Source: Clostridia bacterium (lineage in GTDB: Bacteria; Bacillota; Clostridia; Oscillospirales; Acutalibacteraceae). From it: a DNA stretch of 64,000 nucleotides. The DNA is taken from assembly GCA_017507805.1 (NCBI GenBank), contig JAFWAC010000001.1, positions 23,695-87,694 of the forward strand. The letters are read 5' to 3'. Both the position numbers and the translations under genes were made by a program. Below the pieces are notes generated by a model that was given only the letters and a program-made list of their open reading frames with translations, did no database searches and was not told the DNA's origin. The first letter of the stretch is position 1. The number at the start of each line of letters is the position of its first letter. Below are positions 6,839-58,471 of this stretch, piece after piece.

Positions 6839-6856
6839 TTATTTACATTTGCCTAT

Positions 6857-30930: not shown

Positions 30931-31041
30931 CTACAAAAAGTTAATTAAAGGCTTATCGCCCCAGACTGTAGACAAAGCCTATTTTAGGTGGTTGTCTCAC
31001 TAAGGTTAAGATACGCAATTACCGAAGCGGTTTCAACATTG

Positions 31042-31170: not shown

Positions 31171-31185
31171 CTGTGTTTGGCGTGT

Positions 31186-32319: not shown

Positions 32320-33114
32320 TTATATTACCCCGTATACTATAAGCATAAAAAGCATTGGCACTATCATTATTATGCTGTCAACACGGTCTAAAATACCACC
32401 GTGACCGGGAATAAGGCTTCCGTAATCCTTAAGTCCCACAGCTCTTTTGATTGAGGAAGCAAACAAATCACCCAGCATACCTATAACGCAAAAGGGGATT
32501 GTGAGAACAATGGGCAGCAGCATTGCTTTTTTGAAGCAGAGGGTTAAAATCACGGTGACAATTACACTCGCGGCTATTCCGCCGATTGCGCCCTCCACCG
32601 TCTTTTTGGGGCTTACATTCGGGCAAAGCTTGTGCTTGCCCAAAAAGCTTCCTGTAAAGTAAGCCCCCATATCGCAGACACTTGAAAAATTAAGCAGCAG
32701 CAAAAGATAGTAAATACCGCCGAATTTTTTATTCAGCACAAACTCTAAGCAGAAAAAGGCAAAGCCCAATGCCAAGGGCAGACCGCAAAGAGATGCTATA
32801 TGCGCGAGGGTAAGCTCCTTATTATTCTTAAGGACGATTACCACCGCAAAAAGGAAATAAATAATACTCACAAAAAAGAAGGAATGGTAGGTATACCGTG
32901 TTGCAAGCACCGCAAGTCCTGCATAAATACAAGCGCCTATTATCGCCGCCTTCGATTTTATCCCAACCGCGTTGTGTATAAGCTCATAAGCGGCGCCTGC
33001 CGCAATAAGCGCAACCGCAACCGTGATTATAAAGGAATTTAAAAGATACCCTGCCGCCAAAACCGCCGCAACAATAGCTCCCATTACAATTCCCGAAATT
33101 ATCCTCGTCTTCAT
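32320..33114 (-). CDS. cdsA: phosphatidate cytidylyltransferase
   Basis: 264 aa. Signature SSIKRAVGLKDYGSLIPGHGGILDRVDS. Confidence 0.94.
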   Translation of the reverse strand: MKTRIISGIVMGAIVAAVLAAGYLLNSFIITVAVALIAAGAAYELIHNAVGIKSKAAIIGACIYAGLAVLATRYTYHSFFFVSIIYFLFAVVIVLKNNKELTLAHIASLCGLPLALGFAFFCLEFVLNKKFGGIYYLLLLLNFSSVCDMGAYFTGSFLGKHKLCPNVSPKKTVEGAIGGIAASVIVTVILTLCFKKAMLLPIVLTIPFCVIGMLGDLFASSIKRAVGLKDYGSLIPGHGGILDRVDSIIMIVPMLFMLIVYGVI

Positions 33115-33330
33115 ATTTTTAGTCCGCCTTTACTGTTTACTAATGCTAAGCTTTTACCCCGATGGGGAGTTTGTATGAAATTCACAGCTTTTTAATCCGC
33201 CTTTACATTGTAATGAATAGTGAATAATGAATAATGAATAATGAATAATTAATGTGTCGGCGGTGCCGACATTATATATCGTGCTGAAGGCACACCTTAC
33301 CGATTCACTTTTCACTATTATCTTTTACCT
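33115..33330 (-). repeat. R-element copy a: ~210-nt structured repeat ending at the cdsA start codon
   Basis: Minus strand is homologous to 45070..45277 (about 97% over the first 85 nt, about 80% over the rest, by eye). Contains a (TGAATAA)n tandem repeat at 33216..33250. Confidence 0.8.
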
Positions 33331-33352
33331 GTTTGGTTTTTTCAAAACCAAA

Positions 33353-34066
33353 CTATACTCCTCCGAAGCGGCGGTTGCGGTGATTATATTCATCAATCGC
33401 CCTTTCCAGATGCTTAGGTCTGAAATCGGGCCACAAAATGTCCGAAAACCAATATTCCGCATAAGCCGACTGCCAGATAAGATAATTTGAAAGCCTGTAT
33501 TCACCGCTTGGTCTGATAATAAAATCAGGATCGGGCATACCGGCTGTGTAAAGATGTGCCGAAACCGTCTCCTCGGTGATTTCCCCGGCAGGGATACCCT
33601 CGGCAACGATTTTTCTCACCGCGCGGGTAATTTCATCCTTACCGCCATAGTTTATGGCAATGTTAAGGTTCAGTCCCGTAGCCTCCTTAGAGCCGTCCTC
33701 GTTCTTTTTTATGAGCGCCTTAATATCCTCGTCAAGCACCTCTAAATTACCGATAAACCGAACTCTTATATTTTCGTCCTTAAAATTCTCGGCATCCTTA
33801 AGGTAATCGCGCAAAAGCTTCATAATACCCTCCACCTCGTCCTTGGGCCTTTTCCAATTTTCGGTGGAAAAGGCGTAAACCGTGAGGTATTTAAGCCCGA
33901 TTTTGTTGCAATATCTTGCAATATCCTTAAAGGTTTTAGCTCCGGCAACATGCCCTGCCGAGCGCGGCAGGGAGCGCTTCTTTGCCCATCTGCCGTTCCC
34001 GTCCATTATTATTGCAATATGGGTTGGCAGTATGCGCTCAAGGTTTTTCTTTTTCATAAATGCCAT
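33353..34066 (-). CDS. uppS: isoprenyl transferase (undecaprenyl diphosphate synthase)
   Basis: HIAIIMDGNGRWA motif. Start placed at the ATG at 34066 (GGTGGTG RBS); the ORF is open to 34087. Confidence 0.93.
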   Translation of the reverse strand: MAFMKKKNLERILPTHIAIIMDGNGRWAKKRSLPRSAGHVAGAKTFKDIARYCNKIGLKYLTVYAFSTENWKRPKDEVEGIMKLLRDYLKDAENFKDENIRVRFIGNLEVLDEDIKALIKKNEDGSKEATGLNLNIAINYGGKDEITRAVRKIVAEGIPAGEITEETVSAHLYTAGMPDPDFIIRPSGEYRLSNYLIWQSAYAEYWFSDILWPDFRPKHLERAIDEYNHRNRRFGGV

Positions 34067-34167
34067 AAAAGCACCACCAAACAGCAAAATGCAGGGGTCG
34101 CTGCCAACATCGGCCCAAAGCTCGGGCGGACGAAGGGCAACCGCCCCTGCAAAGTGAATTTTATTTA

Positions 34168-34722
34168 TTAGATTTCAAGAATTTCCTTTTCCTTGATACC
34201 TGCAAGCTCGTCTATTTCCTTGCAGTATTTATCGGTGAGGTTTTGTATCTGCTTTTCGCCGTTTGCAACATCGTCCTCTGTAACGGTGTTTGCCTTTTTG
34301 AGGGCTTTAAGCTTTTCGATAGCATCTCTGCGTGTGTTTCTTATTGCAACCTTGCTGTCCTCTGCAAATTTCTTGACATCCTTAACGATTTCCTTTCTGC
34401 GCTCCTCGGTAAGAGGGGGGAAGGAAAGGCGGATAACTCTACCGTCATTCTGAGGGTTAATTCCAATGTCAGAGGTCTGGATTGCCTTTTCAATGGTCTT
34501 AAGTGTTGAAGCGTCCCAAGGCTGAATCATAAGCACGCGCGGCTCGGGAGTTGAAACAGCCGCCATCTGCTGAATGGGGGTGGGTGCGCCGTAATAATCA
34601 ACGGTGATACGGTCTAAAACAGAGGCATTTGCTCTGCCTGCGCGTATAGATTTATAATCTCTCTCCAAAACGGCAACCGTTTTGTTCATCTTTTCCTCGG
34701 TATTTTTAATTAATTCTTTCAT
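34168..34722 (-). CDS. frr: ribosome recycling factor
   Basis: 184 aa. Canonical Frr sequence and pyrH-frr-uppS-cdsA synteny. Confidence 0.97.
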   Translation of the reverse strand: MKELIKNTEEKMNKTVAVLERDYKSIRAGRANASVLDRITVDYYGAPTPIQQMAAVSTPEPRVLMIQPWDASTLKTIEKAIQTSDIGINPQNDGRVIRLSFPPLTEERRKEIVKDVKKFAEDSKVAIRNTRRDAIEKLKALKKANTVTEDDVANGEKQIQNLTDKYCKEIDELAGIKEKEILEI

Positions 34723-34734
34723 AAACCTTTCTCC

Positions 34735-35439
34735 TTACTTTACTATTGTGCCGATAGTTTCGCCTGTCATTGCGGCAACGATATTATCGGGATTTTCAAG
34801 ATTAAACACAAGTATCTCAATACCGTTATCCATACAAAGGGAAGCGGCGGTGCTGTCCATAACATGAAGTCCCTGCTTGAGCACCTCAAGATGCGAAAGG
34901 GTGTCATACTTCTTTGCGTCGGGATTAAGCTTGGGGTCGCTGTCATAAACACCGTCAACATTGGTTGCCTTAAAGATAACATCTGCGCCGATTTCTGCCG
35001 CGCGCAATGCCGCCGCAGTGTCGGTCGAGAAAAAGGGATTTCCCGTTCCGCAGCCGAAAATCACAACTCTGCCCTTTTCGAGATGCCTTACTGCCTTATT
35101 GCGGATATAAAGCTCTGCAATCTGGCGCATTTCGATAGCAGTCTGCACCCTTGCGGTAACACCCAACTGCTCAAGCGCATCGGCTAAAGCCAGAGAGTTT
35201 ATAGAGGTTGCCAGCATTCCCATGTGGTCAGCCCTTGTTCTGTCCATCTTGCCGCTTGAACGACCGCGCCAGAAATTGCCGCCGCCAACCACGATTGCAA
35301 CCTGAACGCCCATTTCCACGCAGGTTTTAATCCTTTCACAGACGCTTAATACCTTATCAAAATCAATGCCTGAGCCTTTTTCGCCGGCAAGCACCTCGCC
35401 GCTGAGCTTAAGCAACACCCTTTTATAAACAGGTTTCAC
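34735..35439 (-). CDS. pyrH: UMP kinase
   Basis: [15 protein letters not shown]-terminus. Start placed at the GTG at 35439 (GAGGGG RBS 8 nt upstream); the ORF is open to 35448. Confidence 0.95.
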
Positions 35440-35477
35440 AAGCCACACCCCTCAAAATTTTATTCATATCTAATCAT

Positions 35478-35506
35478 ATTTTACCTTAAACTGTCTGCAA
35501 AGTCAA
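35478..35506 (-). promoter_or_regulatory. sigmaA-type promoter of pyrH operon
   Basis: Minus strand TTGACT (35506..35501), 17 nt, TAAAAT (35483..35478). Confidence 0.5.
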
Positions 35507-35593
35507 TCAAATTATATATAAGTTTTTCATACTGCCGCTTTTAGCTTTTCCGTTCCAACCCATCACCGCATTTTACTCGATTTAGGGAGTGTT

Positions 35594-35883
35594 AAATTAT
35601 AGTTTAGCGGGGTGCCCCCGCGGTCATTCCGCCTTTTTATTCTGCAAAATTACAACACGATACCCCGATGGCGTAAACACATATAAATTATAGTAGGGGA
35701 CGATGGGTCTCGTTGCGGCTCGGTCACTTTTTGGCTCTGACAGTCCACCGGACTGTCATTCACTACCAAAAAGCCGCTTCGCTACCCACATCGTCCCGCT
35801 TGGTTTCTGCAAATTCTGGCGGGACGATGTGGGCATCGTCCCCTACAAAATGTCAATTTAATTAGTGCGCTAAACTATAATTT
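35594..35883. mobile_element. composite MITE-like mosaic bounded by perfect 16-nt inverted termini
   Basis: AAATTATAGTTTAGCG at 35594..35609 and CGCTAAACTATAATTT at 35868..35883. The interior holds module M (35607..35692, ending in AAATTATAGT) and palindrome P2-a. Confidence 0.7.
35693..35846. repeat. GTAGGGGAC...GTCCCCTAC palindrome P2-a, left arm split by a 79-nt nested palindromic insertion (35706..35784)
   Basis: Apart from the insertion, the arms match the perfect copy at 57402..57476. The loop is in the inverted orientation with one base difference. Confidence 0.8.
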
Positions 35884-36035
35884 GTTTTTTGCTTCGCCGT
35901 CACATACTGTGTTTTTGCCGAAGGCTTAAATGCAAAACAGCAATATTTCTAAAGTTTTTGTCAATAAAACCTATTGATTTACGGGGGATATAGCATTAAA
36001 ATTAAAATAAAATAATTTTAAAGGGAGTGCTTGTT

Positions 36036-37124
36036 ATGCCGGTCAGAGAAAAATCCTTCAGAATTGGCTGTGGCAGATATCTGCAGGAGCCGGGTATTCT
36101 TAAAGCTTGCGGAGAGGAGATTTTAAGGCTGGGAAATTCTCCGCTTATTGTCGGGGGTAAAACCGCCCTTGAGCTGACACGCAGCTACATTGAGCAAAGT
36201 GTTGCCGCCGTCTGCAAAAAATATGAAATAACCGAGCATTGCGGCACCTGTAACGAGGAGCGCGCCTCGGAGCTTGCGACTTATGCAAGGAAAAACGGGT
36301 TTAATGTGATTGTAGGTGTCGGAGGCGGAGTTTTAATGGATTTTGCCAAGCTTACAGGCGATTTTGCAGAGCTTCCCGTTATCAACATTCCAACCTCCTC
36401 TGCCACCTGTGCGGCATACACTCCGCTTAGCGTGCGCTATACAACGGACGGCAGAACGGTGGGAAGCCGCCATTTCGGTTATGAGGTTTCAGGTGTTCTG
36501 GTTGATACGGAAATTTTGGTACATCAGCCGACAAGGCTGTTGCTTTCGGGTGTGTTTGATGCCCTTGCCAAGTTTGTTGAAATAAAGCAACGGTTTAACG
36601 AAAGCACCTGCGAATATCCCTTAGGGCTTGATTGGGCTTATGTTCTTGCAAAAAGGTCATTTGATGAGCTTGTAAGCAAAACCGAAAAATGCATAGAGGA
36701 TATGGCGAAAGGTAAGTGCACAGACACGGTTGAGCAGATTACCTTCACCAACATTGCCGCAACGGGTGTTATAAGCGGAATTGCCAGAGGCTCCAATCAA
36801 TGTGCTTTGGCGCACAAGTTTTATGAGGGTACACGCGCAATGTTTTTCGAGCAAAGCCGCAGTTATCTCCACGGTGAAATAGTGGGTATTGGACTGCTTT
36901 TGCAGAATTTCTTTAACGGCGAAACCCAAAACAATGAATTTCTTTTGTCGCTGATGAGAAAGTACGGTATGCCCTGCTGTCTTTCGGATATCGGCATTGA
37001 GCCGACAGCCGAGGCATTGGAGCTTTACTTTGAACGGCTTAAGGGCGGCAGTGCCATAGATGAAAACAACCCCGAGGAGACGGCTTTGCTCCGAAAGGGC
37101 TTGGAATATTTGTGGAGCATATAA
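36036..37124 (+). CDS. iron-containing alcohol/glycerol dehydrogenase-family oxidoreductase
   Basis: 362 aa from the ATG at 36036 (AAAGGGAG RBS). GVGGGVLMDFAK nucleotide-binding motif. His-rich metal site region (HKFYE..HGE). Confidence 0.85.
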   Translation: MPVREKSFRIGCGRYLQEPGILKACGEEILRLGNSPLIVGGKTALELTRSYIEQSVAAVCKKYEITEHCGTCNEERASELATYARKNGFNVIVGVGGGVLMDFAKLTGDFAELPVINIPTSSATCAAYTPLSVRYTTDGRTVGSRHFGYEVSGVLVDTEILVHQPTRLLLSGVFDALAKFVEIKQRFNESTCEYPLGLDWAYVLAKRSFDELVSKTEKCIEDMAKGKCTDTVEQITFTNIAATGVISGIARGSNQCALAHKFYEGTRAMFFEQSRSYLHGEIVGIGLLLQNFFNGETQNNEFLLSLMRKYGMPCCLSDIGIEPTAEALELYFERLKGGSAIDENNPEETALLRKGLEYLWSI

Positions 37125-37135
37125 GGAGCAGGGTT

Positions 37136-37786
37136 ATGCAACAGACAATTGACAGTATTTTAAAGGAAAAGCTGATTGTTATTGTGAGGGGTGTTGCCCG
37201 CGAAAAGCTTATCCCCTTTGCGGAGGCGGTTTACAGGGGCGGCGTCCGTCTTTTGGAATGCACATACGATGCTTGCGGTAATACGCCTGATGAGGAAATT
37301 GCCTCAAACATACAAATGCTTTGCGAGCATTTTGATGGCAGAATGTTAATAGGTGCCGGCACGGTGCTTACCGAGCATCAGGTTGAGCTTACCAAAAAGG
37401 CAGGCGGCAGATTTATTATTTCGCCCGACACAAATCCTGCCGTTATCGCAAGGACAAAGAAGGAGGGCTTGGTTTCAATACCCGGCGCTCTCACCCCCAC
37501 AGAAGTTTCTGCGGCACACAATGCCGGTGCGGATTTTGTGAAGCTTTTTCCCGTGGGGATTTTCGGCGCAAAATATATTAAGGACATCAAAGCACCGCTT
37601 TCACATATCCGTTTTCTGGCTGTGGGCGGTGTGGGCAGTGATAATATGAAGGAATATTTCGATTGCGGTGCCTGCGGTATCGGTGTGGGGTCAAGCATAG
37701 TAAATCACAGTCTTTTGGCGCAAAATGATTTTGCGGCGATTGAGGCTTGTGCGCGTAAATATACAGATTGTATAAGGGGACTTTGA
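37136..37786 (+). CDS. eda: KHG/KDPG aldolase (4-hydroxy-2-oxoglutarate / 2-dehydro-3-deoxyphosphogluconate aldolase family)
   Basis: 216 aa from the ATG at 37136 (AAGGAG RBS). Class I aldolase Lys in ADFVKLFPV. Eda family length. Confidence 0.85.
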   Translation: MQQTIDSILKEKLIVIVRGVAREKLIPFAEAVYRGGVRLLECTYDACGNTPDEEIASNIQMLCEHFDGRMLIGAGTVLTEHQVELTKKAGGRFIISPDTNPAVIARTKKEGLVSIPGALTPTEVSAAHNAGADFVKLFPVGIFGAKYIKDIKAPLSHIRFLAVGGVGSDNMKEYFDCGACGIGVGSSIVNHSLLAQNDFAAIEACARKYTDCIRGL

Positions 37787-37787
37787 A

Positions 37788-38939
37788 ATGAAGGATTTTA
37801 ATAAGCTTTGCGAGGTTATCGACAGCCTTGAGGAGGAGTTTATAAAGGTTTGGGTGGATGTGTGTAACATCGAAAGCCCGACAGAATGTAAAGCAGGGGT
37901 AGATGCGGTTGGCAGATATTTTGCCGAGAAATCCCAAAAAAACGGCTGGCAGGTTGAAATTTTTGAACAGCCGGTTTCGGGCAACTGCGTTTGCATTACA
38001 ATGAACCCAAATTCCTGCAATCAGCCGATAACCCTTTCGGGGCATATTGACACGGTGCATCCTGTCGGTTCCTTCGGAACACCTGCCGTCCGTCTTGATG
38101 AAAAGTATATTTACGGGCCGGGAGTTACCGATTGCAAGGGCGGAACGGTTGCGGCACTGCTTGCTATGACCGCGCTCGGTAAAATCGGCTTTGATACCCG
38201 TCCTGTGAGGCTGATTTTGCAAAGTGACGAGGAAGCCGGCAGTATTTACAGCAATAAAAAAACAATAGAATACATCTGCCGCAAAGCAGAGGATTCCATT
38301 GCATTCTTAAACTGCGAAAGCACGCGCGGCAACACTGCGGTTTTGTGGCGCAAGGGTATTTGCAGATATAATTTTGACATTACCGGAAAAACAATTCACG
38401 CTTCCCGTTGTGCCGAGGGGGCAAGCGCAATAGCCGAAGCGGCACATAAAATATTGGCTCTTGAAGGCTTTAAGGACCCCGATGGCATCACCTGCAATTG
38501 CGGACTTATAAGCGGAGGAACTGCGGCAAACTCTGTGCCGGAGCATTGCTCCTTTACCGCCGAGATACGCTTTAATACCAACGAGGAGTGGGAACGGGCA
38601 GATAAATTTATAAAAGAGGTAGCCCAAAGGACTTACATACCCGGCACCGAGTGCAGTCTTACCAAAACAACCAGCCGTTCGATGATGGAAAAATGCGAAC
38701 GGAATTTTGAATTACTTGAACGGCTCAACAAAATTTATGCCGAAAACGGTATGCCCACACTTACCGCAAGGCAAAGCCTCGGCGGCTCTGACGCGGCAGA
38801 GGTCACGGTACACGGTATTCCTTGTATAGATTCTATCGGTGTTGCAGGGGACAGAATTCATAGCCCCGAGGAATACGGGGTGTTAGCCTCCCTTACAGAG
38901 GCGGCAAAGCGAATTGCCGCCGCGTGTTATTTTATTTAG
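37788..38939 (+). CDS. M20-family metallohydrolase (carboxypeptidase G2/ArgE/DapE-like)
   Basis: 383 aa. Metal ligand motifs GHIDTVHP, GPGVTDCKGG, SDEEAGS. Confidence 0.85.
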   Translation: MKDFNKLCEVIDSLEEEFIKVWVDVCNIESPTECKAGVDAVGRYFAEKSQKNGWQVEIFEQPVSGNCVCITMNPNSCNQPITLSGHIDTVHPVGSFGTPAVRLDEKYIYGPGVTDCKGGTVAALLAMTALGKIGFDTRPVRLILQSDEEAGSIYSNKKTIEYICRKAEDSIAFLNCESTRGNTAVLWRKGICRYNFDITGKTIHASRCAEGASAIAEAAHKILALEGFKDPDGITCNCGLISGGTAANSVPEHCSFTAEIRFNTNEEWERADKFIKEVAQRTYIPGTECSLTKTTSRSMMEKCERNFELLERLNKIYAENGMPTLTARQSLGGSDAAEVTVHGIPCIDSIGVAGDRIHSPEEYGVLASLTEAAKRIAAACYFI

Positions 38940-38959
38940 TGTGACAGGTTCGGCTCCTG

Positions 38960-40135
38960 TCACACCTTAAGCTCACTCAAAAATTCACCCATTCGTTTAA
39001 GGGCTTCGGTTATGTGCTCAACCGAGTAGCAGTATGACGCGCGGATAAAGCCCTCGCCGCTGTCACCGAAGGCGGTACCGGGAACAACCGCAACCTTTTT
39101 GGAATAAAGCAATCTTTCGCAAAATTCCTCACTGCTCATTCCGGTAGCCTTGATGGACGGAAAGGCATAAAAAGCGCCTTTCGGCTCACGGCAGGTAAGT
39201 CCGATTTTATTAAAGCCTGCAACCATCATTCTGCGGCGCATATTATATTCCTTAAGCATAACCGCAACCTCATCATCACAGTTTTTCAGCGCCTCTATTG
39301 CGGCATACTGCGAGGTTGTGGGTGCGCACATAATGGCATATTGGTGAATTTTAAGAAGCTGGCTCATTATTTCCTTTGGTCCGCACGCAAAGCCCAAGCG
39401 CCAACCGGTCATGGAAAATGCCTTTGAAAAGCCGTTGATTGTTACGGTTCTTTCGCGCATACCCTCGACCGAGGCGGTGGCTGCGTGCGGATTTTTTCCG
39501 AATGTGAGCTCGGCATATATCTCGTCCGACAAGATAAGGATATTTGTATCCTTTATCACCTCGTAAAGCGCGGCAATATCCTCTTTTTCCATTATAGCGC
39601 CTGTCGGGTTACAGGGGTAGGGCAGGATGAGAAGCTTTGTGCGGTCGGTTATAGCGGCTTCAAGCTCCTGCGGAGTGACCTTGAAATCGTTTTCTGCCTT
39701 TGTGTTTATAATCACCGGCGTGCCGCCTGCAAGACGGGTCATCGGCTCGTAGCAGACATAGCTCGGCTGGGGGATAATAACCTCGTCCCCCTGTGAAACT
39801 GTGGCGCGGATGCAGGCATCAATGGCTTCACTGCCGCCCACGGTAACCACAATTTCGTTATCAGGGCAGTAGTTAAGACCGAATTTGCGCTCCATATAGG
39901 TTGAAATTTCGCACAAAAGGGGATAAAGACCTGTGTTTGAGGTGTATTTCGTTTTGCCGTTTTGCAGGGAATTAATACCTGCCTTGCGAATCTGCCAGGG
40001 GGTTTGGAAATCGGGCTCACCCACACCGAGAGAAATTACCCCCTCCATTGTGGCGGCAATATCGAAAAATTTCCGTATACCCGAGGGCTTGATTTCGGTT
40101 ACGGTTTTGTTCAAAACCTTGGAATAATCTATCAT
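38960..40135 (-). CDS. class I/II PLP-dependent aminotransferase
   Basis: 391 aa. NPTG and SKAFSMTGWRLG (PLP lysine) motifs. Confidence 0.92.
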   Translation of the reverse strand: MIDYSKVLNKTVTEIKPSGIRKFFDIAATMEGVISLGVGEPDFQTPWQIRKAGINSLQNGKTKYTSNTGLYPLLCEISTYMERKFGLNYCPDNEIVVTVGGSEAIDACIRATVSQGDEVIIPQPSYVCYEPMTRLAGGTPVIINTKAENDFKVTPQELEAAITDRTKLLILPYPCNPTGAIMEKEDIAALYEVIKDTNILILSDEIYAELTFGKNPHAATASVEGMRERTVTINGFSKAFSMTGWRLGFACGPKEIMSQLLKIHQYAIMCAPTTSQYAAIEALKNCDDEVAVMLKEYNMRRRMMVAGFNKIGLTCREPKGAFYAFPSIKATGMSSEEFCERLLYSKKVAVVPGTAFGDSGEGFIRASYCYSVEHITEALKRMGEFLSELKV

Positions 40136-40614
40136 ATCCAGAGCTGCCCCCTGTCATCCTCGTCCATTGACACAAGCTCAACATCCATTTCCTTGTATCT
40201 GCGCATAACGAAATGGGTTGTGGTGGAGGTCACAGAGTCAATGGTGGCAAGCTCCTTTGCAACAAACCACGCAATATCCTTAAGGGTTTTGCCCTTTACC
40301 ACAACATTCAGGTCATAAACACCCGACATCAGGTAAACCGACTCAACCTCGGGGTATTTCATAATCTTTTTGGCAACCTCCTCAAAGCCCAAGCCTGCCT
40401 TGGGAACAACATTAAGCTCAATTATTGCCGAAACATAAGCACCGTCCAGCTTGTCCCAATCGACCAAAGCCTTGTAGCCGCGAAGCAGTCCGTCCTTTTC
40501 AAGCTCCTTTATGGAGGAGGTGACCTCCGCCTCGGTTATTGCAAGCATTGTTGCGATTTCTTCTGTGGTGTAGCGCGCATTGCGGGCTAAAAGCTTGAGT
40601 ATTTCGTATTTCAT
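40132..40614 (-). CDS. Lrp/AsnC-family transcriptional regulator
   Basis: 160 aa. N-terminal HTH (ILKLLARNARYTTEEIA) and RAM domain. Overlaps the aminotransferase start. Confidence 0.9.
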   Translation of the reverse strand: MKYEILKLLARNARYTTEEIATMLAITEAEVTSSIKELEKDGLLRGYKALVDWDKLDGAYVSAIIELNVVPKAGLGFEEVAKKIMKYPEVESVYLMSGVYDLNVVVKGKTLKDIAWFVAKELATIDSVTSTTTHFVMRRYKEMDVELVSMDEDDRGQLWI

Positions 40615-40630
40615 AATTAAAACTCCTTTT

Positions 40631-40853
40631 TAAAAAAATAACGCCCTGAAAAAATTTCAGGACGAATAAAAATCCGTGGTACCACCCGATTTCGGGAAAA
40701 TCCCGCACTCAAAACCCGTAACGAGGGTGACGGCAATCCCTTTCGGGCGCAGCTGAGGAAAGAGCTTCACAGGGCTTTAAAGGTGGATTTTCACCGGCCA
40801 TCCACTCTCTTGACACTTAAAACCGAGCTACTTATTTTCCCTTATCGCTTTTA
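40631..40853 (-). promoter_or_regulatory. T-box leader (tRNA-sensing riboswitch), probable Ala (GCU) specifier
   Basis: Minus strand has AGTA S-turn, AGAGAG, GGTGAAAA distal loop, T-box sequence AATCGGGTGGTACCACGG and terminator CGTCCTGAAATTTTTTCAGGGCG + T-run. GAA-GCU-C lies in the specifier position (codon at 40765..40763). Confidence 0.8.
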
Positions 40854-40860
40854 CAAATTA

Positions 40861-40889
40861 ATCATACTATTTTTTAAGGTATATGTCAA
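40861..40889 (-). promoter_or_regulatory. sigmaA-type promoter of the T-box operon
   Basis: Minus strand TTGACA (40889..40884), 17 nt, TATGAT (40866..40861). Confidence 0.55.
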
Positions 40890-40980
40890 GCAAAAAAATA
40901 ATCCGATAAACAGTATTAACCATTGACTTGCGGGCAATTTAGTATTAAAATAATGATATAAAAATTTTAGGAGTATAGTT

Positions 40981-41289
40981 ATGAGCGAAGAAATCAAAAA
41001 GGATTATGACCCCGATTTAATTACACTTACAGATGATGAGGGCAAGGAGTACACCTTCGAGGTGCTTGATGCTATCGAAACCGACACCGGCAGATACCTT
41101 GCAATGCTTCCCACCTTTGACGATCCTCAAAAAATGCTTGAGGACAGCGGCGAGCTTGTAATCGTTAAGGTTGAGGAAGAGGACGGCGAGGAGTATTACT
41201 GCGAAATCGAGGATGACGATGAGTATGAAACCGTTGCTGATGCATTTATTAACCGCCTTCAGGATTTTTTTGAGATAGAAGACAAATAA
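40981..41289 (+). CDS. DUF1292-family protein
   Basis: 102 aa, acidic. DDEGKEYTFEVLD...YLAML pattern typical of DUF1292. Confidence 0.8.
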   Translation: MSEEIKKDYDPDLITLTDDEGKEYTFEVLDAIETDTGRYLAMLPTFDDPQKMLEDSGELVIVKVEEEDGEEYYCEIEDDDEYETVADAFINRLQDFFEIEDK

Positions 41290-41310
41290 TATAAATAAAT
41301 ATCAAAATTT

Positions 41311-41516
41311 TTGTCCTGCGCTGTTCGCGGACCGTGACTTATATAACCCTACAACCTTTTTAAAAGGGACCACAGCTCGTACGGCGGGCTTGCAGACCTC
41401 CCGCGGCGGTGCCGAGTTCGGAAGAAGGGAGCGCGAAGCCGTACGGCCGGTACCCACCTGGCTTACGCTAGGTTATCTTAAGCACATTACGGCAGCGCGG
41501 GACACTCGTGTTTTTT
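41311..41516 (+). ncRNA. ffs: signal recognition particle RNA (SRP/scRNA)
   Basis: Closing helix GTCCTGCGCTG / CAGCGCGGGAC. Domain IV-like GAGTTC-GGAA-GAAGGGAGCGC resembles CAGGUCC-GGAA-GGAAGCAGC. Long helix CGTACGGC../..GCCGTACG. T-run at the 3' end. Confidence 0.7.
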
Positions 41517-41568
41517 GGGGAAAATGGAACAGCCCAAAAGAAAGAAAACCCGATTAGAAAAGGTAAAA

Positions 41569-42258
41569 ATGAAAGACAGTATAACACTTAACATAATTGC
41601 AAAAATAAAAACCGATTTTCCCACCAAGTTCGGAATACCCCGTCAAAGCGGTATAATACCCGAGCTTAAAGGAAAAATCGTATTTGAACCGGAATACCGC
41701 AACCCTGAGGCCCTGCGCGGACTTGAGGGTTTTTCGCATTTATGGCTTTTGTGGAAATTTTCCGAGGCTGTGTCAGAAGCCTGGTCGCCCACAGTGCGCC
41801 CTCCAAGGCTTGGCGGCAACCGCCGTATGGGTGTGTTTGCCACCCGTTCGCCCTTCAGACCAAATCCGATTGGGCTTTCCTCGGTCAAAATTGAGGACAT
41901 TATCCACGGCACACCCGAGGGTACGGTTATTGTGGTTTCGGGAGCCGACCTTCTGGACGGCACTCCGATATATGATATAAAGCCTTATATTGCTTATACC
42001 GACAGCCACCCTGACGCGGTTGGCGGTTTTTCGCAGGCTGTAATGGAAAATTCACTGCAGGTGGTCTTTGAAGGGGGAGCCGAGCAAGGCTTGCCGCAAG
42101 AAATTCTCCTGCCTCTCAGGAAAATACTTGAAAATGACCCCCGTCCCGGCTACCAACGGGACAGCGAGCGCATATATTCCTTTGAATTTTCGGGGTATAG
42201 AATCAAATTCAAGGCTGATGACCTGAACCTGACGGTCATTTCGGCAGAAAAAATGTAA
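41569..42258 (+). CDS. trmO: tRNA (N6-threonylcarbamoyladenosine(37)-N6)-methyltransferase TrmO (TsaA/YaeB family)
   Basis: FGIPRQSG, GFSHLWLLWKF, RSPFRPNPIG motifs. Start chosen at MKDSITLN (41569); alternative ATG at 41524. Confidence 0.88.
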   Translation: MKDSITLNIIAKIKTDFPTKFGIPRQSGIIPELKGKIVFEPEYRNPEALRGLEGFSHLWLLWKFSEAVSEAWSPTVRPPRLGGNRRMGVFATRSPFRPNPIGLSSVKIEDIIHGTPEGTVIVVSGADLLDGTPIYDIKPYIAYTDSHPDAVGGFSQAVMENSLQVVFEGGAEQGLPQEILLPLRKILENDPRPGYQRDSERIYSFEFSGYRIKFKADDLNLTVISAEKM

Positions 42259-42282
42259 AATTTTAAAAATGAAAAAATTACA

Positions 42283-42355
42283 GTAGGGACAGACGTCCCC
42301 GACTGTCCGTTGATTCAGATGTGTTTTACGGACAGTCGGGGATGCCTGTCCCTAC
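42283..42355. repeat. GTAGGG...CCCTAC palindrome P1-b (27-bp arms, ~19-nt loop)
   Basis: GTAGGGACAGACGTCCCCGACTGTCCG ... CGGACAGTCGGGGATGCCTGTCCCTAC between convergent trmO and the DD-carboxypeptidase gene. Confidence 0.85.
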
Positions 42356-42385
42356 ATTTATTCTTTTAGATACCGAAATTCAAAT

Positions 42386-43501
42386 TCAGGAAGCAAAGCT
42401 TTTGTAAAGGTCAATCTGACCGTAAAAAGCGGGCCAACGCGCTGAATTTGCCAAGGTCACAACAATATATTCGGTGCCGCTTGAGTTTGCCTTGCCAAAG
42501 GAAGCAATGCAATAGCCCGATTCATTCACAAAGCCGGTTTTACCGCCCAAAATGGTGGCGGTTTCGGGCTCTGTGCCGTACATATAACTGAAAAGTGTGC
42601 TTGAAAGCAGAATACCGTTCGGATTTTGGGGTGTTTGGGCGGTGGTGTGCTGATAGGATGAAAGCACCTGTCGGCAAAGGGGATTTTCCATCGCCGCCCT
42701 GAGAATTACCGCCATATCATAGGCGGAGGAATAGTTGTTTTCAGAATGAAGCCCCGTGACATTATCAAAACAGGTGTTTTCAAGCCCCAATTCCTCAACC
42801 CTTTTATTCATAAGCTTAACAAATGCCTTTTCACTGCCTGCAAGCTTTATTGCAATCCCCATTGCCGCATCTGCGCCCGAGGGCAGAATCGTTCCGTAAA
42901 GCAGGTCGTTAATGCTGACCTCCTCACCGTCCAGAAAGCCTGCAACCGAAGCCTCCGCAACATATAACGGATCGGTAATTTCGTAGGTCATGGTAAAGGT
43001 ATCGTTAAGGTCGGTAAGGGTTTCAGCCGCTACAAGCAGTGTCATTATCTTGGTGGTTGATGCCGGATATGCCCTTTGGTGGGGATTTCTCGCCGCAACA
43101 ACGGTATTGTTGTTGGAATTAACAATTATAGCGCATTTGGCATCGTTAGTGCTTAAAATATCGGGGGTTTCACCGCTTGGAAAGGTGAAATGGATTTCGG
43201 GAACCCTGTCCTCATTTTTGTCGGTAGTCTCTGCGCCACCTTTTTCGGAGCCATTTTCCTGCTTTTCTGCCTTGCCCTTAAAGCCTGAAGCCACAGCTGC
43301 CGAGGTTATTATAATAACCAGCCCCAGCATTATTGCAAGAACTGATTTTCGCAATCTTATAACCTTGTAAACACCGCGTTTTTGGGTGGTTTGAGCCTGC
43401 GGCTTTTGTTCGGCAGGGGAGGGATTTTCCCTCTTATCAAGCTGTTTTTCAAGGTTTTTGAAATATTCACCGTAATCCTTGTGATTAAACTCGTTAGACA
43501 T
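42386..43501 (-). CDS. D-alanyl-D-alanine carboxypeptidase (S11 family)
   Basis: 371 aa. N-terminal anchor. SxxK (ASTTK), SxN (SEN), KTG (GGKTGF). Confidence 0.9.
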   Translation of the reverse strand: MSNEFNHKDYGEYFKNLEKQLDKRENPSPAEQKPQAQTTQKRGVYKVIRLRKSVLAIMLGLVIIITSAAVASGFKGKAEKQENGSEKGGAETTDKNEDRVPEIHFTFPSGETPDILSTNDAKCAIIVNSNNNTVVAARNPHQRAYPASTTKIMTLLVAAETLTDLNDTFTMTYEITDPLYVAEASVAGFLDGEEVSINDLLYGTILPSGADAAMGIAIKLAGSEKAFVKLMNKRVEELGLENTCFDNVTGLHSENNYSSAYDMAVILRAAMENPLCRQVLSSYQHTTAQTPQNPNGILLSSTLFSYMYGTEPETATILGGKTGFVNESGYCIASFGKANSSGTEYIVVTLANSARWPAFYGQIDLYKSFAS

Positions 43502-43528
43502 TTATGCTCTCCGTTCGTGGAAATATCA

Positions 43529-43564
43529 TAAAAAATATGCAGGGTGGGTATTGCTCTACCCTGC
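43529..43564 (-). terminator. intrinsic terminator after the TPM gene
   Basis: Minus strand GCAGGGT..ACCCTGC hairpin followed by ATATTTTTTA. Confidence 0.5.
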
Positions 43565-43572
43565 AATAAATA

Positions 43573-44349
43573 TTAAAACTTTCTGCCGGCGCCGCCGCCT
43601 CCGAAGGAGCCGCCACCGCCCGAAAAACCGCCGAAGCTGCCTGACGAGCCACCAAAGCCGCCTGAGCCAAAGCCTCCCGGACCGCCGAAAAAGAAAAATC
43701 CGCCGCGTCCGTGTCTGTTTGTCAATAATGAAAATACAATCAAAATTATTAAAAGTATTACCCAGGAAAGAGCAACCCTGCCGCTGTACCCCTCGGAGAC
43801 AGATTCAGCATCGGAAATATAATCAATCGAAACATAGCCGGTTTCAGGCTCTAAACCGTATTCAATATAAACCTCGTTTATGAGTGCGTTTGTGATGGCA
43901 GTAATTCCTGACGAAAAATCGTCCTGCTGTAAAAGGGAAAGCCCGTAATGGTCGATAATTCTGCCGGTTTTGCTGTCGGGCAGGGCGCCCTCTAAGCCGT
44001 AACCCACAGCGATATATATTTCACGGTCACTTTCGGACAACAAAATCACAATTCCGTTATCCTTTTCCTCGTCTCCCACACCCCATTCTCTGCCTAATTG
44101 CAGAGCATAGTCGGCAGGCTCCTGCCCGTCAAGGCTTTCGATTGTAACCACAACAACCTGCGCGGTGGTTTTTTGTTCCAAAGCGGCTGCTTTGGAAACG
44201 ATTTCCGCTTCGTGTGTGTCGGTTAAAACCTCGGCAAAATCGTTGACAAAGAAATATTCGGTAGGCTCCGGAAAGGAACTGCTTTCCTCACAGCCGCAAA
44301 GCAATACAAGGAAAAGAGAAATTACCGCAATTAATATTTTTCTTTTCAT
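43573..44349 (-). CDS. TPM-domain lipoprotein with Gly-rich C-terminal tail
   Basis: 258 aa. Lipobox LLCGC. TPM phosphatase-like domain. TM helix. GGFGG-rich tail. Classic partner of LemA. Confidence 0.85.
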   Translation of the reverse strand: MKRKILIAVISLFLVLLCGCEESSSFPEPTEYFFVNDFAEVLTDTHEAEIVSKAAALEQKTTAQVVVVTIESLDGQEPADYALQLGREWGVGDEEKDNGIVILLSESDREIYIAVGYGLEGALPDSKTGRIIDHYGLSLLQQDDFSSGITAITNALINEVYIEYGLEPETGYVSIDYISDAESVSEGYSGRVALSWVILLIILIVFSLLTNRHGRGGFFFFGGPGGFGSGGFGGSSGSFGGFSGGGGSFGGGGAGRKF

Positions 44350-44351
44350 AA

Positions 44352-44924
44352 TCAGTTAAAGCTTACCTGCGGTACATCCTGGGCATCACTGTCTGCTTCA
44401 AAATATTCGTAAGCCTCAAAGCCGAAAATACCTGCAAGGAGATTGCGTGGGAATTTCTTTATCGAAACATTAAATTCCTTTGCTCTTTCGTTGTAATCCC
44501 TGCGTGCTTGTGCGATGCGGTTTTCGGTGCCTGTAAGCTCATCCTGCAAACCGATATACTGCTCGCTTGCCTTAAGCTCGGGATAAGCCTCGGTCACAGC
44601 GTTTACCCAAATGTCAATCGCACTGTCAAGCCTCTGGGAAGCCGCCGCCTGTTCACCCACAGAATCGGCATTGGCAACTGCGTTTCGTGCCTCGGTAACA
44701 GCGGTAAAGGTTTCCTGCTCGTAATCGGAATAGCCCTTAACGGTTGCGACAAAGTTGGGAATTAGGTCTGCCCTTCTTTGAAGCTGGGTAGAAATTTCTG
44801 CGCTTGCGGCGGTCACCCTTTCGCTTCTTTCAACGAAATTGTTATAAGAACCGATAAGTGAGCCGATAAGCACCACGATAACTGCAATAACTATACCTAT
44901 TATAATCAGTTTTTTATTTTTCAT
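44352..44924 (-). CDS. lemA: LemA-family membrane protein
   Basis: 190 aa. N-terminal TM helix. LemA conservation (YNNFV..., RRDYNERAKEFN). Confidence 0.9.
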   Translation of the reverse strand: MKNKKLIIIGIVIAVIVVLIGSLIGSYNNFVERSERVTAASAEISTQLQRRADLIPNFVATVKGYSDYEQETFTAVTEARNAVANADSVGEQAAASQRLDSAIDIWVNAVTEAYPELKASEQYIGLQDELTGTENRIAQARRDYNERAKEFNVSIKKFPRNLLAGIFGFEAYEYFEADSDAQDVPQVSFN

Positions 44925-45033
44925 AAAAACGCTTCCTTTCGGAAAAATTTTCTTTTATTTTTACATTGTACTATATTTTATTAAAAAAAGCTACTACAAA
45001 TATATTATTATTTTTTATTGCCGCAATAAACTG

Positions 45034-45062
45034 TTGATTTTTGGAAGAAAAATGGGTATTAT
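45034..45062 (+). promoter_or_regulatory. sigmaA-type promoter firing into R-element copy b / sufC
   Basis: TTGATT (45034..45039), 17 nt, TATTAT (45057..45062). The -10 overlaps an ATTATAGT terminal-motif variant. Confidence 0.5.
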
Positions 45063-45069
45063 AGTATGT

Positions 45070-45277
45070 AAGATAAAAGATAATAGTGAAAAGTGAATAG
45101 GTAAGGTGTGCCTTCGGCACGATATATAATGTCGGCACCGCCGACACATTAATTATTCATTTTTCATCCTTCATTATTCATTACAATGTAAAGGCGGACT
45201 AAAGGGCTGTAATTACAGCTAAACTTCCCATCGGGGTAAAAACTTGGCATTAGTACAAAAGAAAAGGCGGATTAAAA
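45070..45277 (+). repeat. R-element copy b: ~210-nt structured repeat ending at the sufC start codon
   Basis: Homologous to the minus strand of 33115..33330. Hairpins GTGCC-TTC-GGCAC, TGTCGGC-ACC-GCCGACA, CCC-ATC-GGG. Two AAAGGCGGA SD-like boxes, the second 6 nt before the ATG. Confidence 0.8.
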
Positions 45278-46009
45278 ATGTTGGAGTTGAAAAATATTTG
45301 CTTTAGTGCGGAAAATGATGACGGCACAAAGGAAATTTTGAAAAATATAAATCTCAAAATTGATACGGGCTTTGTGGTTATCACCGGCCCTAACGGCGGC
45401 GGAAAATCCACCCTGGCAAAAATAATTTCGGGTATCATAAAACCCACATCGGGACAAATTTTGCTTGACGGTGAGGATATAACCGAGCTTTCTGTGACCG
45501 ACAGGGCAAAACGCGGCATAAGCTTTGCTTTTCAGCAACCGGTACGGTTTAAGGGTATCACCGTGCACGACCTCATAAGCCTTGCGGCAGGTAAAAAAAT
45601 CGGTATAACCGAGGCTTGCGACTATCTTTCACAGGTGGGACTTTGCGCAAGGGATTATATAAACCGCGAGGTCAACGCATCCCTTTCGGGCGGCGAGCTT
45701 AAGAGGATTGAAATTGCGACAGTGCTTGCAAGGTCAACCAAGGTTTCGATTTTTGACGAGCCTGAAGCCGGAATTGATTTGTGGAGCTTTAACAGCCTTA
45801 TCAAGGTGTTTGAAAAAATGCACAGCACTTTGGGCGGCTCGATTATAATTATTTCCCATCAGGAAAGAATACTTAACATTGCCGACAGGATTGTGGTTGT
45901 GTCGGCAGGGAATATTAAAAGCATCGGCACAAAAGAGGAAATTTTACCCGACCTTTTAGGAACTGCCGATAGGGGCTGCAAGGCGCTTGCGGCTTCGGCG
46001 GAGGTGTAG
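45278..46009 (+). CDS. sufC: Fe-S cluster assembly ATPase SufC
   Basis: 243 aa. Walker A GPNGGGKST. LSGGE signature. Walker B IFDEPEAG. Confidence 0.9.
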   Translation: MLELKNICFSAENDDGTKEILKNINLKIDTGFVVITGPNGGGKSTLAKIISGIIKPTSGQILLDGEDITELSVTDRAKRGISFAFQQPVRFKGITVHDLISLAAGKKIGITEACDYLSQVGLCARDYINREVNASLSGGELKRIEIATVLARSTKVSIFDEPEAGIDLWSFNSLIKVFEKMHSTLGGSIIIISHQERILNIADRIVVVSAGNIKSIGTKEEILPDLLGTADRGCKALAASAEV

Positions 46010-46011
46010 GT

Positions 46012-46929
46012 ATGAACAGCACAGAGCTTGAACTGTTAAAAATTATTGCTGATATGGACGGTACACCCGAGGGTGCGTATAATATACGCGCCAACAGCGG
46101 TCTTACCGACCGCCGCGTTACCGAAAATATAGATATTAAAACTAAAACCGATAAAAGCGGAATAGATATTATTATAAAGCCCGGCACAAAGGGTGAAAAG
46201 GTGCATATCCCCGTTATAATAAGCGAGTCGGGACTTACAGAGAATGTTTATAACGATTTTATTATAGGCGAAAATGCCGATGTTGAGATTGTTGCAGGCT
46301 GTGGTATTCATAACTGCGGTGACGGCGAGTCCCGACACGATGGTATTCATAGCTTTTTCGTGGGCAAAAACGCAAGGGTGCGTTATGTTGAAAAGCATTT
46401 CGGCGGCGGTGACGGCAACGGAGAACGCAATATGAACCCCACCACCGTTGTAAACATTGCCGAGGGCGGCTATATGGAAATGGAAACCACACAGATTGAG
46501 GGTATTGATTCGACAAAAAGGGTGACCAAAGCCCGCCTTGCCGATAATGCCACCCTTGTTATCAAGGAAAAGCTTATGACACACGGCTCTCAGCGCGCCG
46601 AAACCGATTTCACGGTTGATTTGGACGGCGAAAACTCAAGCGCAAATGTTATTTCGCGCTCGGTTGCAAAAGAAAATTCGTATCAGCTATTTATTTCTAA
46701 AATTAATGGTAATAATATCTGTAATGGACACACCGAATGTGATGCGATTATTATGGATAATGCCCATGTGTCTGCAGTGCCGGAAATTACTGCAAATCAC
46801 ATAGACGCTTCCCTTATTCACGAAGCGGCAATCGGTAAAATTGCAGGTGAGCAGCTTATAAAGCTTATGACGCTGGGACTTACCGAGCAGGAAGCAGAGG
46901 AGCAGATTGTAAACGGATTTTTGAAATAA
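46012..46929 (+). CDS. SufB/SufD-family Fe-S assembly scaffold protein
   Basis: 305 aa. Beta-helix SufBD core. Immediately follows sufC. Confidence 0.85.
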   Translation: MNSTELELLKIIADMDGTPEGAYNIRANSGLTDRRVTENIDIKTKTDKSGIDIIIKPGTKGEKVHIPVIISESGLTENVYNDFIIGENADVEIVAGCGIHNCGDGESRHDGIHSFFVGKNARVRYVEKHFGGGDGNGERNMNPTTVVNIAEGGYMEMETTQIEGIDSTKRVTKARLADNATLVIKEKLMTHGSQRAETDFTVDLDGENSSANVISRSVAKENSYQLFISKINGNNICNGHTECDAIIMDNAHVSAVPEITANHIDASLIHEAAIGKIAGEQLIKLMTLGLTEQEAEEQIVNGFLK

Positions 46930-51212: not shown

Positions 51213-51361
51213 TGTGATTTTAAAATATAAAAAAGGCTGTAAAAAACTCAACACTCTAAAAAACAATAAAATAAGGCAAGTTAAAATAATAAAGTGCGTA
51301 AGAAGTGAAAAATACAAACTTCTTACGCACTTTTGCCCTTTTATAATCTGATTTGAGATGT

Positions 51362-51495
51362 AAAATATAGTTTGATAAACAAATCAAAATGATATATCGT
51401 AGGGGCATGCGTCCCCGAACGCCCGTTAGTTACGATGAATTTTGCGGACAGTCGAGGACACCTGTCCCTACAAATAATCCCAATAAACTATAATT
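51362..51495. mobile_element. MITE-like unit (AAAATATAGTTTG ... AAACTATAATT) carrying palindrome P1-c (51399..51471)
   Basis: Degenerate terminal motifs at 51362..51374 and 51485..51495. The interior is GTAGGGGCATGCGTCCCCGAACGCCCGT ... GCGGACAGTCGAGGACACCTGTCCCTAC. Confidence 0.6.
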
Positions 51496-57250: not shown

Positions 57251-57326
57251 TTTAAAATTCCTTCCTGATAATTATACAAATATATTTTAACACTTTAAAG
57301 CGAATTTTGCAAGGGTTTATTATTCA

Positions 57327-57501: not shown

Positions 57502-57521
57502 ATTGCAAGAAAGATTTTTGG

Positions 57522-58224: not shown

Positions 58225-58230
58225 TAAAAT

Positions 58231-58458: not shown

Positions 58459-58471
58459 AATATTTTGAATT

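Follow-up and report, generated by a model that had tools for sequence, protein, structure and literature searches.

Intervening sequences (IVSs) of 23S rRNA genes that hold an open reading frame (ORF) for an S23p/PF05635 protein, as in Coxiella burnetii and Leptospira, are selfish, dispensable inserts in a transcribed, essential region (PMC4990558). According to the sections of that paper on Coxiella, the insert there measures 428 nt, has a 28-bp terminal stem that RNase III cuts in the middle, carries tandem heptamers whose number varies among strains, and holds the S23p ORF in its loop. The PF05635 protein resembles the Avd protein of diversity-generating retroelements, as stated in part of PMC10053308. 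Here we describe the R-element, a repeat of ~210 nt with two copies in a 64,000-nt stretch of DNA (the window) from a Clostridia bacterium (Oscillospirales; Acutalibacteraceae; assembly GCA_017507805.1, contig JAFWAC010000001.1, positions 23,695-87,694, forward strand). One copy lies at 45071-45277 on the plus strand, before a sufC-like gene, and the other at 33115-33330 on the minus strand, before cdsA. The R-element is a composite of two modules, H and S. Module H is like the IVSs, as far as PMC4990558 portrays them, in its long inverted-repeat terminal stem and in the tandem heptamers of variable copy number in the stem region, and the R-element as a whole is like them in being an apparently selfish, dispensable insert in a transcribed, essential region. 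Unlike them, it sits in mRNA leaders and operon junctions rather than in helix 25 or 45 of the 23S rRNA, it has no ORF, only a 38-nt core with two hairpins, and its processing by RNase III is putative.

Other relations are found among dispersed bacterial repeats. BOX, RUP and SPRITE of the pneumococcus, BIME, the Neisseria NIME and Correia are short, AT-rich, palindromic and multi-copy, as is the R-element, and the MITE-like or mosaic repeats covered in the same part of that literature are modular, patchy and co-transcribed as 5' or 3' adducts, as the R-element would be (PMC3049150). Module H has several traits of MITEs (miniature transposable elements with inverted repeats): inverted terminal arms, small size, AT-richness, multiple copies and a patchy distribution. 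It differs from a MITE defined by its terminal inverted repeats in that its centre is conserved and its arms are variable; further, its arms are heptad arrays, and neither a target duplication nor a cognate transposase was found for it. The cyanobacterial STRR sequences are intergenic direct repeats of heptamers. REP and REPIN elements, which go with RAYT, are dispersed palindromic elements with a conserved hairpin and a larger foldback, as in H. Unlike these, H has no GTAG-type REP head, and the Y1 transposase genes of the genome studied here are not flanked by H. The TAACTGA repeats of Beggiatoaceae, Cyanobacteria and Bacteroidetes, in the description available from PMC4679880, are tandem 7-nt words often located just upstream of unrelated start codons, which recalls H, and a role in translation has been proposed for them. 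Unlike the TAACTGA repeats so described, which form direct arrays of a single word, H has two inverted arrays that pair around a core, with words that vary by subfamily. The R-element is a new form of these known interspersed foldback repeats, with an instructive replacement of a ribosome-binding site. No published account of the H family, or of a PF05635 link in Firmicutes, was found in the full-text literature, with subscription journals and supplements lying outside that search.

The source genome (G000; 2.34 Mb in 36 contigs, 41.9% G + C, 87.6% complete) contained the full 212 nt only twice, and H alone or parts of H matched elsewhere. In a search of the genome against itself, the second R copy was recovered with 87% identity over query positions 6-212 (E 2.1e-69). 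The alignment of the whole element had 187 of 215 columns identical (87.0%), with 82 of 85 (96.5%) over 45071-45155 and 105 of 130 (80.8%) over 45156-45277, close to the ~97% and ~80% estimated in an earlier, sequence-only reading of the window. The homology has sharp ends: the identity was 21.6% in the 37 nt preceding it (45034-45070) and 41% past the ATG. The two copies differ in length by one 7-nt unit, located in the 3' arm of H. Both are sense to the following gene, as had been claimed, and end at its ATG with a Shine–Dalgarno (SD)-like box, the start codons being reached at 45278 and 33114. Each copy also has the second box described in that reading: AAAGGCGGAYTAAAA is present at 45190-45204 and 45263-45277 in the sufC copy, and at 33190-33204 and 33117-33131 in the cdsA copy (five matches in the window at ≤2 mismatches, 0.91 expected). 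The notion of a single ~210-nt element had to be given up, the two modules being dispersed separately. We favour, with moderate confidence, the reading that the R-element, a composite present in two copies, is made up of intergenic repeats of a selfish type and is not a dedicated regulatory leader.

Module H is a foldback of ~115 nt, in which ~37-nt arms of inverted 7-nt words surround a two-hairpin core. It reads, in order, as a purine-rich arm (GTGAAWA type), GGTGT, the hairpin GTGCC-NNN-GGCAC, an A/T linker (GATATATAAT), the hairpin GTCGGC-NNN-GCCGAC, ACAC(C) and a pyrimidine-rich arm (TATTCAT type). The sufC copy (45071-45185, plus strand) scored 104.6 bits sense and 61.9 bits antisense with R1, a covariance model of the H family. 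It consists of the 5' heptad arm (45071-45107), the hairpin GTGCC-TTC-GGCAC (45108-45120), the linker GATATATAAT (45121-45130), the hairpin GTCGGC-ACC-GCCGAC (45131-45145) and the 3' heptad arm (45146-45185). The cdsA copy (33216-33330, minus strand; 97.7 bits sense, 57.7 bits antisense) is longer by one heptad, and its first hairpin (GTGCCTTCAGCAC) contains a C·A mismatch. All hairpins listed in the sequence-only reading are present, GTGCC-TTC-GGCAC being imperfect in the cdsA copy.

Module S is a low-copy, A-rich module of ~90 nt that ends in AAAGGCGGAYTAAAAAT. The inserted part of its first copy (45186-45257, plus strand) carries the first AAAGGCGGACTAAAG box (45190-45204), the hairpin GCTGTAATTACAGC (45206-45219) and the hairpin CCC-ATC-GGG (45227-45235). 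It is followed by the terminal AAAAGGCGGATTAAAA box (45258-45277), the presumed SD of sufC and most likely native leader sequence. The second copy, with both its boxes, spans 33115-33215 on the minus strand. Between the uppS stop and the cdsA insert there is a short A/T hairpin, TTTGGTTTTGAAAAAACCAAAC (33331-33352, minus strand), which the sufC copy does not have. A short ORF of 24 codons (GTG...TGA; 33130-33205, minus strand) follows the first box of the cdsA copy, and its stop overlaps the cdsA ATG (ATATGA); it is unconserved, and we rejected it because the sufC copy has a stop after CTG.

To place the two copies, we used same-genus genomes: 28 for cdsA, 28 plus G009, the closest relative used, for sufC, and 27 for trmB. 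The gene names of the sequence-only reading were in agreement with Pfam. The sufC-like ABC ATPase gene (ABC_tran; 45278-46009, plus strand) has a start, MLEL, that is kept in relatives, and is followed by a SufBD-core gene (46012-46929, plus strand). The proposed promoter, TTGATT-17-TATTAT, was found outside the repeat (45034-45062, plus strand), with 9 of 12 consensus positions. A promoter scan of the region was not above shuffles (three found, 2.5 expected), and the motif TTGATTTTT...GGTATTAT is kept upstream of sufC in ~22 of the 28 relatives, read by eye, and in G009. The R homology begins where transcription is predicted to start (~45069-45071). In relatives, only ~25-45 nt lie between the -10 box and the ATG, and none of the 28, nor G009, had the R-element or the inserted part of S at sufC. 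Judging by this comparison, the sufC promoter is native and not repeat-derived. In G009 the sufC leader reads TATTAT-ATAACTAAGGAAAATTTTATAAAAAAGGCGGATTTTAAAAAGTG, and AAAAAAGGCGGATTTTAAAAAGTG is found after a ~30-nt leader without H or S; the sufC leaders of two further genomes (G010 and G007) carry GAAGGCGGAAT. Because G009 has the box without the insert, the AAAAGGCGGATT box at sufC is most likely native leader sequence and not insert-supplied, and the boxes of the three genomes argue that the insertion of H and of the remainder of S took place upstream of it.

The cdsA gene (CTP_transf_1; 32320-33114, minus strand; start MKTR kept in relatives) is preceded by UppS (Prenyltransf) and RRF genes and followed by Dxr, by Pfam. 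The last codons of uppS (33353-34087, minus strand), GGAGGAGTATAG, hold what would be the ancestral cdsA SD. The uppS-cdsA gap is 238 nt in the source genome and 2 nt in G009; 21 of the 28 relatives have gaps of 1-20 nt, and the remaining seven have gaps of 36-133 nt. Where the gap is short, the cdsA SD sits in the last uppS codons (GGAGGAGTnTAA). None of the 28 relatives had the R-element at this junction. The 3' ~60-80 nt of S recur on contig C25 of the source genome, where the ATG of a gene for a TrmB-type methyltransferase follows immediately. S was found before trmB in none of the 27 relatives, and in the nearest of them the distance from the end of the upstream gene to the trmB ATG is 0-18 nt, and the last codons of that gene contain GAGGAA or GGAGAA. 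The short gaps, together with the SDs in the upstream genes, argue that the insert split a coupled junction at cdsA and at trmB, and the comparison shows the presumed ancestral SD to have been displaced by the insert at both.

The terminal box of the second S copy is the sole SD-like sequence before the cdsA ATG, and at cdsA as at trmB no SD-like sequence other than the terminal AAAGGCGGA box now lies at the right distance. This box probably acts as the SD of cdsA. The claim that the R-element supplies the SD of both genes is retained, as probable, for cdsA, and fails for sufC, where G009 has the box insert-free. The absence of the R-element from the orthologous sites argues for lineage-specific insertions instead of a conserved leader, and the two copies are shown by this distribution to be, in all appearance, recent insertions of one lineage. 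In two relatives, G021 and G014 (loci L044 and L040 between them), the uppS-cdsA gap holds another insert of 111-128 nt that is common to both, GTAAAAT(C/T)GCC...CTGCAAAC..., so this junction has been invaded more than once.

On the reading that we favour, H and S would have ended up downstream of the native sufC promoter and upstream of the native SD of that gene, in the lineage of the source genome only. A copy of the whole unit, which begins at the predicted transcription start and reaches the start codon, would have been placed in uppS|cdsA, and the 3' part of S also before trmB. Two points lead us to infer that copying went from sufC to cdsA: sufC alone has the box as native sequence, and the unit spans the predicted start to the ATG. 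At cdsA and trmB, the former SD in the last codons of the upstream gene would be separated from its gene, and the terminal box of the insert, presumably working as an SD, would take over. The insert would be co-transcribed with the downstream gene. The H stem would fold in the RNA and, by analogy with IVS stems, may be cut by RNase III, for which the genome has an rnc gene; such cutting could be why the insert is tolerated inside operons. The second proposal of the sequence-only reading, a MITE that donates translation signals, survives in this form: a mobile or copied insert, with an SD donated, probably, at cdsA, and a native box at sufC. A replacement ribosome-binding site at the insert end suggests how repeats can invade essential coupled junctions without killing the host.

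The two copies could also act as DNA. They form outward-facing inverted repeats of 210 bp around 33331-45069 (11.7 kb) and would permit an inversion by which, from the geometry of the coordinates, cdsA-dxr and sufCD exchange the sufC promoter and the frr-uppS transcript. An identity of 87% over 210 bp suffices for homologous recombination to occur occasionally, but a divergence of 13% speaks against frequent exchange. We looked at genome G047 as an analogous case and rejected it: it has two opposed H copies 8 kb apart, but beside other genes, and not at the cdsA or sufC orthologues. We hold a role in inversion to be extremely improbable.

The H family extends well beyond the R-element. In the source genome we detected eight full copies, each matched by R1 on both strands because the design is palindromic, and two copies with a long core. 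A strict scan for period-7 arrays gave seven arrays only; it was too strict, and the covariance model was used instead. In a DNA search, H matches came from 17 of the 40 other genomes used: 13 of the 24 in the same genus and 4 of the 16 in other families. Of 150 other genomes in the order, 16 had R1 matches under stricter filters (E ≤1e-5), and matches occurred in 13 of 30 families. The two-hairpin core pattern was found at at least 124 loci in contigs from one genome per species, at least 105 of these instances being low-GC. Among the matches listed, the low-GC loci belonged to Acutalibacteraceae, Oscillospiraceae, Ruminococcaceae and "Clostridia" metagenome-assembled genomes (MAGs), mostly from ruminant guts, and the high-GC ones were discarded as chance hits. 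The arm words in the same matches vary by subfamily (GTGAATA/TATTCAT, GAATAAA/TTTATTC, GTAATAA/ACTTATT and GAGAAAT/CTCATT), and the core is constant. In viral contigs the core pattern gave one match, a high-GC, coding-like sequence that we attribute to chance.

The pairing of the H arms was clear. Over 94 unique copies, the arms pair in register to ~37 nt, with a dip in pairing at every 7th position. In an alignment of 44 sequences, 83.3% of cells were paired, compared with 39-52% when the partners were slid, and both sides had changed in 30 of 45 pairs. None of 500 shuffles reached the observed value on four of five measures, and 16 of 500 did so for further pair types. Complementarity of the H arms with compensating changes is thereby shown.

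Several variants of H were seen. The two long-core copies (G000:C20:9970-10205 and G000:C31:102993-103228) have the second core hairpin replaced by a near-identical, GC-rich structured insert of ~110 nt, and no Rfam match was obtained for either (L003, L007). On the strand of the C31 copy, and 49 nt upstream of it, there is a sub-threshold match to the AdoCbl-II riboswitch (31.1 bits against a cut-off of 36.5). One H subfamily was, among the matches listed, always flanked by ATGAAAGCAACAGG plus a GC hairpin and by AAGAGGAGTTAATATATTATGAAAGCAAC... (L009, L026, L010 and a dozen more, e.g., L121, L134, L144, L149, L201 and L220). In this subfamily an SD and first codons (MKATG..., which we take to be the start of an AbrB/SpoVT-like protein) are found on both sides of the insert. 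Genome G016 has repeated units of this kind on one strand, spaced 2-3 kb apart.

For the genomic context of H, the strand of the flanking genes was assigned by a longest-frame rule, by which about half of the flanks were ambiguous or empty; an earlier classifier based on 40-aa ORFs was dropped as too noisy. In the source genome, where contexts rest on crude ORF calls, three of ten copies lay between convergent genes, four between co-directional and three between divergent ones. The co-directional sites were uppS-cdsA, a 610-aa gene followed by a gene for a ...DYYEVLGV protein (presumably dnaK-dnaJ), and two sites on contig C20. Among 34 copies in other genomes, 15 were co-directional, six divergent and three convergent, nine had one flank missing and one was unclear. 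This mix is roughly what random intergenic placement gives. The leader orientation of all copies, by which the sequence-only reading proposed to judge its regulatory leader, does not hold for H, given the three convergent sites in the source genome.

That leader would be a common cis-regulatory RNA (for example, a switch that sequesters the SD by means of the two AAAGGCGGA boxes) under which Fe-S assembly and phospholipid synthesis are regulated together. Both copies being sense and ending at the ATG would suit it, as would a promoter firing into the sufC copy, the duplicated boxes, the conserved hairpins and a weak sense bias in the H family. Against this stands the absence of the R-element from the orthologous sites of 28 relatives for each gene, and of G009 for sufC; the element is thus no conserved, common cis-regulatory RNA. 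A sequestered SD is contradicted by the predicted fold, in which the terminal box is mostly unpaired (P 0.70 at sufC and 0.72 at cdsA) and its best partner has P ≤0.25. At positions 6-37 of the arms, G:T pairs (139) are about as frequent as A:C pairs (143) in the 94 unique copies, and therefore neither strand is marked as the functional RNA. H also occurs between convergent genes (3 of 10 copies in the source genome, 3 of 34 elsewhere), and the one S-like copy in G009 precedes no gene, lying instead against the 3' end of a HIT-like gene in convergent orientation. The whole-leader folds, with z of about -1.5 and -0.9, do not help the proposal. Nor does Rfam: a scan of the whole window gave nothing at gathering score at the R sites, and at E ≤10 the two copies gave chance-level matches only (E ~1 or more; mostly snoRNA, miRNA and sRNA models). 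We consider a dedicated regulatory leader very unlikely. For searches of leader RNAs there is a caution in this, since a structured leader common to unrelated operons can be a recent patchwork of repeats.

A function at transcript ends was weighed on the same contexts. H might be a transcription terminator, attenuator or mRNA-end stabiliser, as REP and BOX elements are, and BOX-type repeats are thought to act so in the part of PMC3049150 that treats them. The second core hairpin, with the T-rich arm, was flagged as terminator-like in both R copies, by a loose consensus that gave one match where 0.4-0.5 were expected. H tends to follow a co-oriented upstream gene (27 copies, versus 11 after an opposite one), and it also sits between convergent genes. 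But the T-run is not at the stem, as ACACC, which pairs with GGTGT, intervenes, and a stop inside uppS-cdsA or the presumed dnaK-dnaJ would cut off essential downstream genes. A terminator-like role is, in our view, decidedly unlikely.

PF05635 is represented in the source genome by three full genes and a fragment. Before the gene at C24:36063 there are inverted TATTCAT/ATGAATA arrays, 88-90% identical to the R arms over 30-42 nt. A near-identical array and gene start lie near C31:10980; we read this gene as a twin of the C24 gene, and it does not appear in the PF05635 domain listing. Word-plus-hairpin arrays also stand before the gene at C27:5583, and GTGTGCCTTGCGGCACGATA, the first H-core hairpin, is among them. 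The fragment on C16 (2662-2781) is decayed, with AATTACG arrays (AATKCGT heptad arms) on its flanks. It sits between a gene ending in ...DEADIS and another gene, presumably gyrB and GyrA, and the upstream gene at the locus L287 of a relative also ends in ...DEADIS. In six relatives (L284, L285, L287, L288, L289 and L290) an intact PF05635 gene was seen between the same kind of arms as on C16. The C24 and C31 genes have a promoter TTGATT-17-TATAAT and an SD GGAAAAGGCGG(T) (C24:36040-36062 and the C31:10980 region), and their AAAGGCGG box is the same uncommon box as in S, in a further repeat, module M, and in the sufC leader.

PF05635 was found in 27 of 30 other genomes of the genus, with one to nine matches each. 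Of 16 loci fetched, one had a flank that was too short; inverted period-7 arrays bracketed the PF05635 gene in 10 of the 15 testable ones, starting 13-259 nt before and 17-55 nt after the gene, with a period-7 identity of 0.54-0.88. At L279, each arm consists of heptads, a GGTGTCC-TGC-GGAC hairpin and then CATTTATA, which is the layout of H with a gene in the middle. These loci show a link, at the level of design, between H and PF05635 within the genus. Since the same design brackets PF05635 genes there, H is best filed, by analogy, as a gene-less variant of the PF05635 cassette. With respect to IVSs it may be said to work like one and not to be a member, because both the rRNA location and the ORF are lacking. 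A heptad-armed foldback family that is abundant in uncultured rumen and gut Oscillospirales would in this way tie in with PF05635/Avd-like cassettes and with the puzzle of the 23S IVSs. The single RVT_1 gene of the source genome (G000:C17:3426-3995, a 384-aa frame) adjoins no PF05635 gene.

The arrays might instead be protein-binding sites that set the expression of flanking genes, with the PF05635/Avd-like product itself, or a protein that binds single strands, such as a cold-shock protein, as the candidate binder. The periodicity of 7 nt is strict, with one or two free positions per word and pairing in 7-19 of 44 sequences at every 7th column, and the same words adjoin PF05635 genes. For Beggiatoaceae, it has been proposed that heptamer arrays preceding start codons serve as sites for a regulator (PMC4679880). 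However, the words vary by subfamily while the core is constant, and copies occur in all intergenic contexts. On the sequence evidence, we think such binding sites unlikely.

A number of observations weigh against the composite of selfish repeats that we prefer. The first concern mobility. No target-site duplication was seen at either R border, as read from the sequences and the alignment, the duplicated AAAGGCGGA boxes being internal, and no mobility mechanism or H-linked transposase was found at the R borders or at the Y1 loci of the source genome. The genome has two Y1_Tnp genes; the best R1 hit at their loci had E 0.059, and the sequences flanking them are unique in the genome. PF05635 cassettes have heptad arms like H, and PF05635 is not a known transposase. 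Five of the 15 PF05635 loci had no bracketing by heptad arms, and the core hairpins of H are not mirror images, unlike what a simple arm-to-arm deletion would produce. As to the ribosome-binding site, AAAGGCGGA is an SD type both weak and uncommon (GGCGG before 39 of 1738 crude starts, versus 280 for GGAGG), and the 16S 3' end is absent from the assembly. The relative G004 has a different, shorter H-like hairpin in its uppS-cdsA gap, in the same orientation, which could mean a hotspot or an older presence. The folds of the whole leaders were not better than those of shuffles (z -1.53 and -0.91, antisense -1.60). Finally, there is a weak sense bias: six of seven co-directional copies with a strand difference of at least 15 bits were sense. 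The upstream gene was on the same strand in 27 cases and on the opposite one in 11, the downstream gene in 16 and 21, respectively. Such a skew would fit an RNA-level or transcription-linked role; it tracks the upstream and not the downstream gene, and could equally reflect insertion biased by replication strand.

A more specific version of events combines several of these elements. H copies would be non-autonomous, gene-less derivatives of Avd-like (PF05635) cassettes, able to settle in the 5' untranslated regions and stop-start junctions of essential operons because RNase III would excise their heptad stem from the transcript, in the manner of an IVS in 23S rRNA. The R-element, extending exactly from the predicted sufC transcription start to the AUG, would be an RNA-defined unit, copied through an RNA intermediate to cdsA and trmB together with the ribosome-binding site of sufC. 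We give this version little credence.

Further repeats and RNAs were noticed in the window. Module M consists of ~92-nt units bounded by AAACTATAATTT, with ~30 or more copies in the source genome, some of them tandem; within the window it lies at 6854-7149, 35593-35895 and 57316-57504. Each unit has CCATCGGGGTATTAGG...AAAAAGGCGGA and then a GC hairpin. S and M have CCATCGGGGTA and AAAGGCGGA in common, 23-24 nt apart. The core shared with M that had been claimed for the R-element was recovered: CCATCGGGGTA has four exact sites in the window, two of them within M, and 10 sites at ≤1 mismatch, where 0.65 were expected. We considered S as a diverged M and rejected this, as only two short motifs at equal spacing are shared and the nhmmer match (E 0.3-0.4) was not significant. 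Self-BLAST depth reached 30 at M, and ~126 kb of the 2.34-Mb assembly were repeated. Other intergenic repeats, with 10-13 further copies each in the genome, lie at 30986-31179, 42274-42361, 51306-51495 and 58223-58464. At gathering score, Rfam detected elsewhere in the window a T-box leader (40655-40854, minus strand), a glmS ribozyme (9085-9240, minus strand) and a 6S RNA (41310-41507, plus strand).

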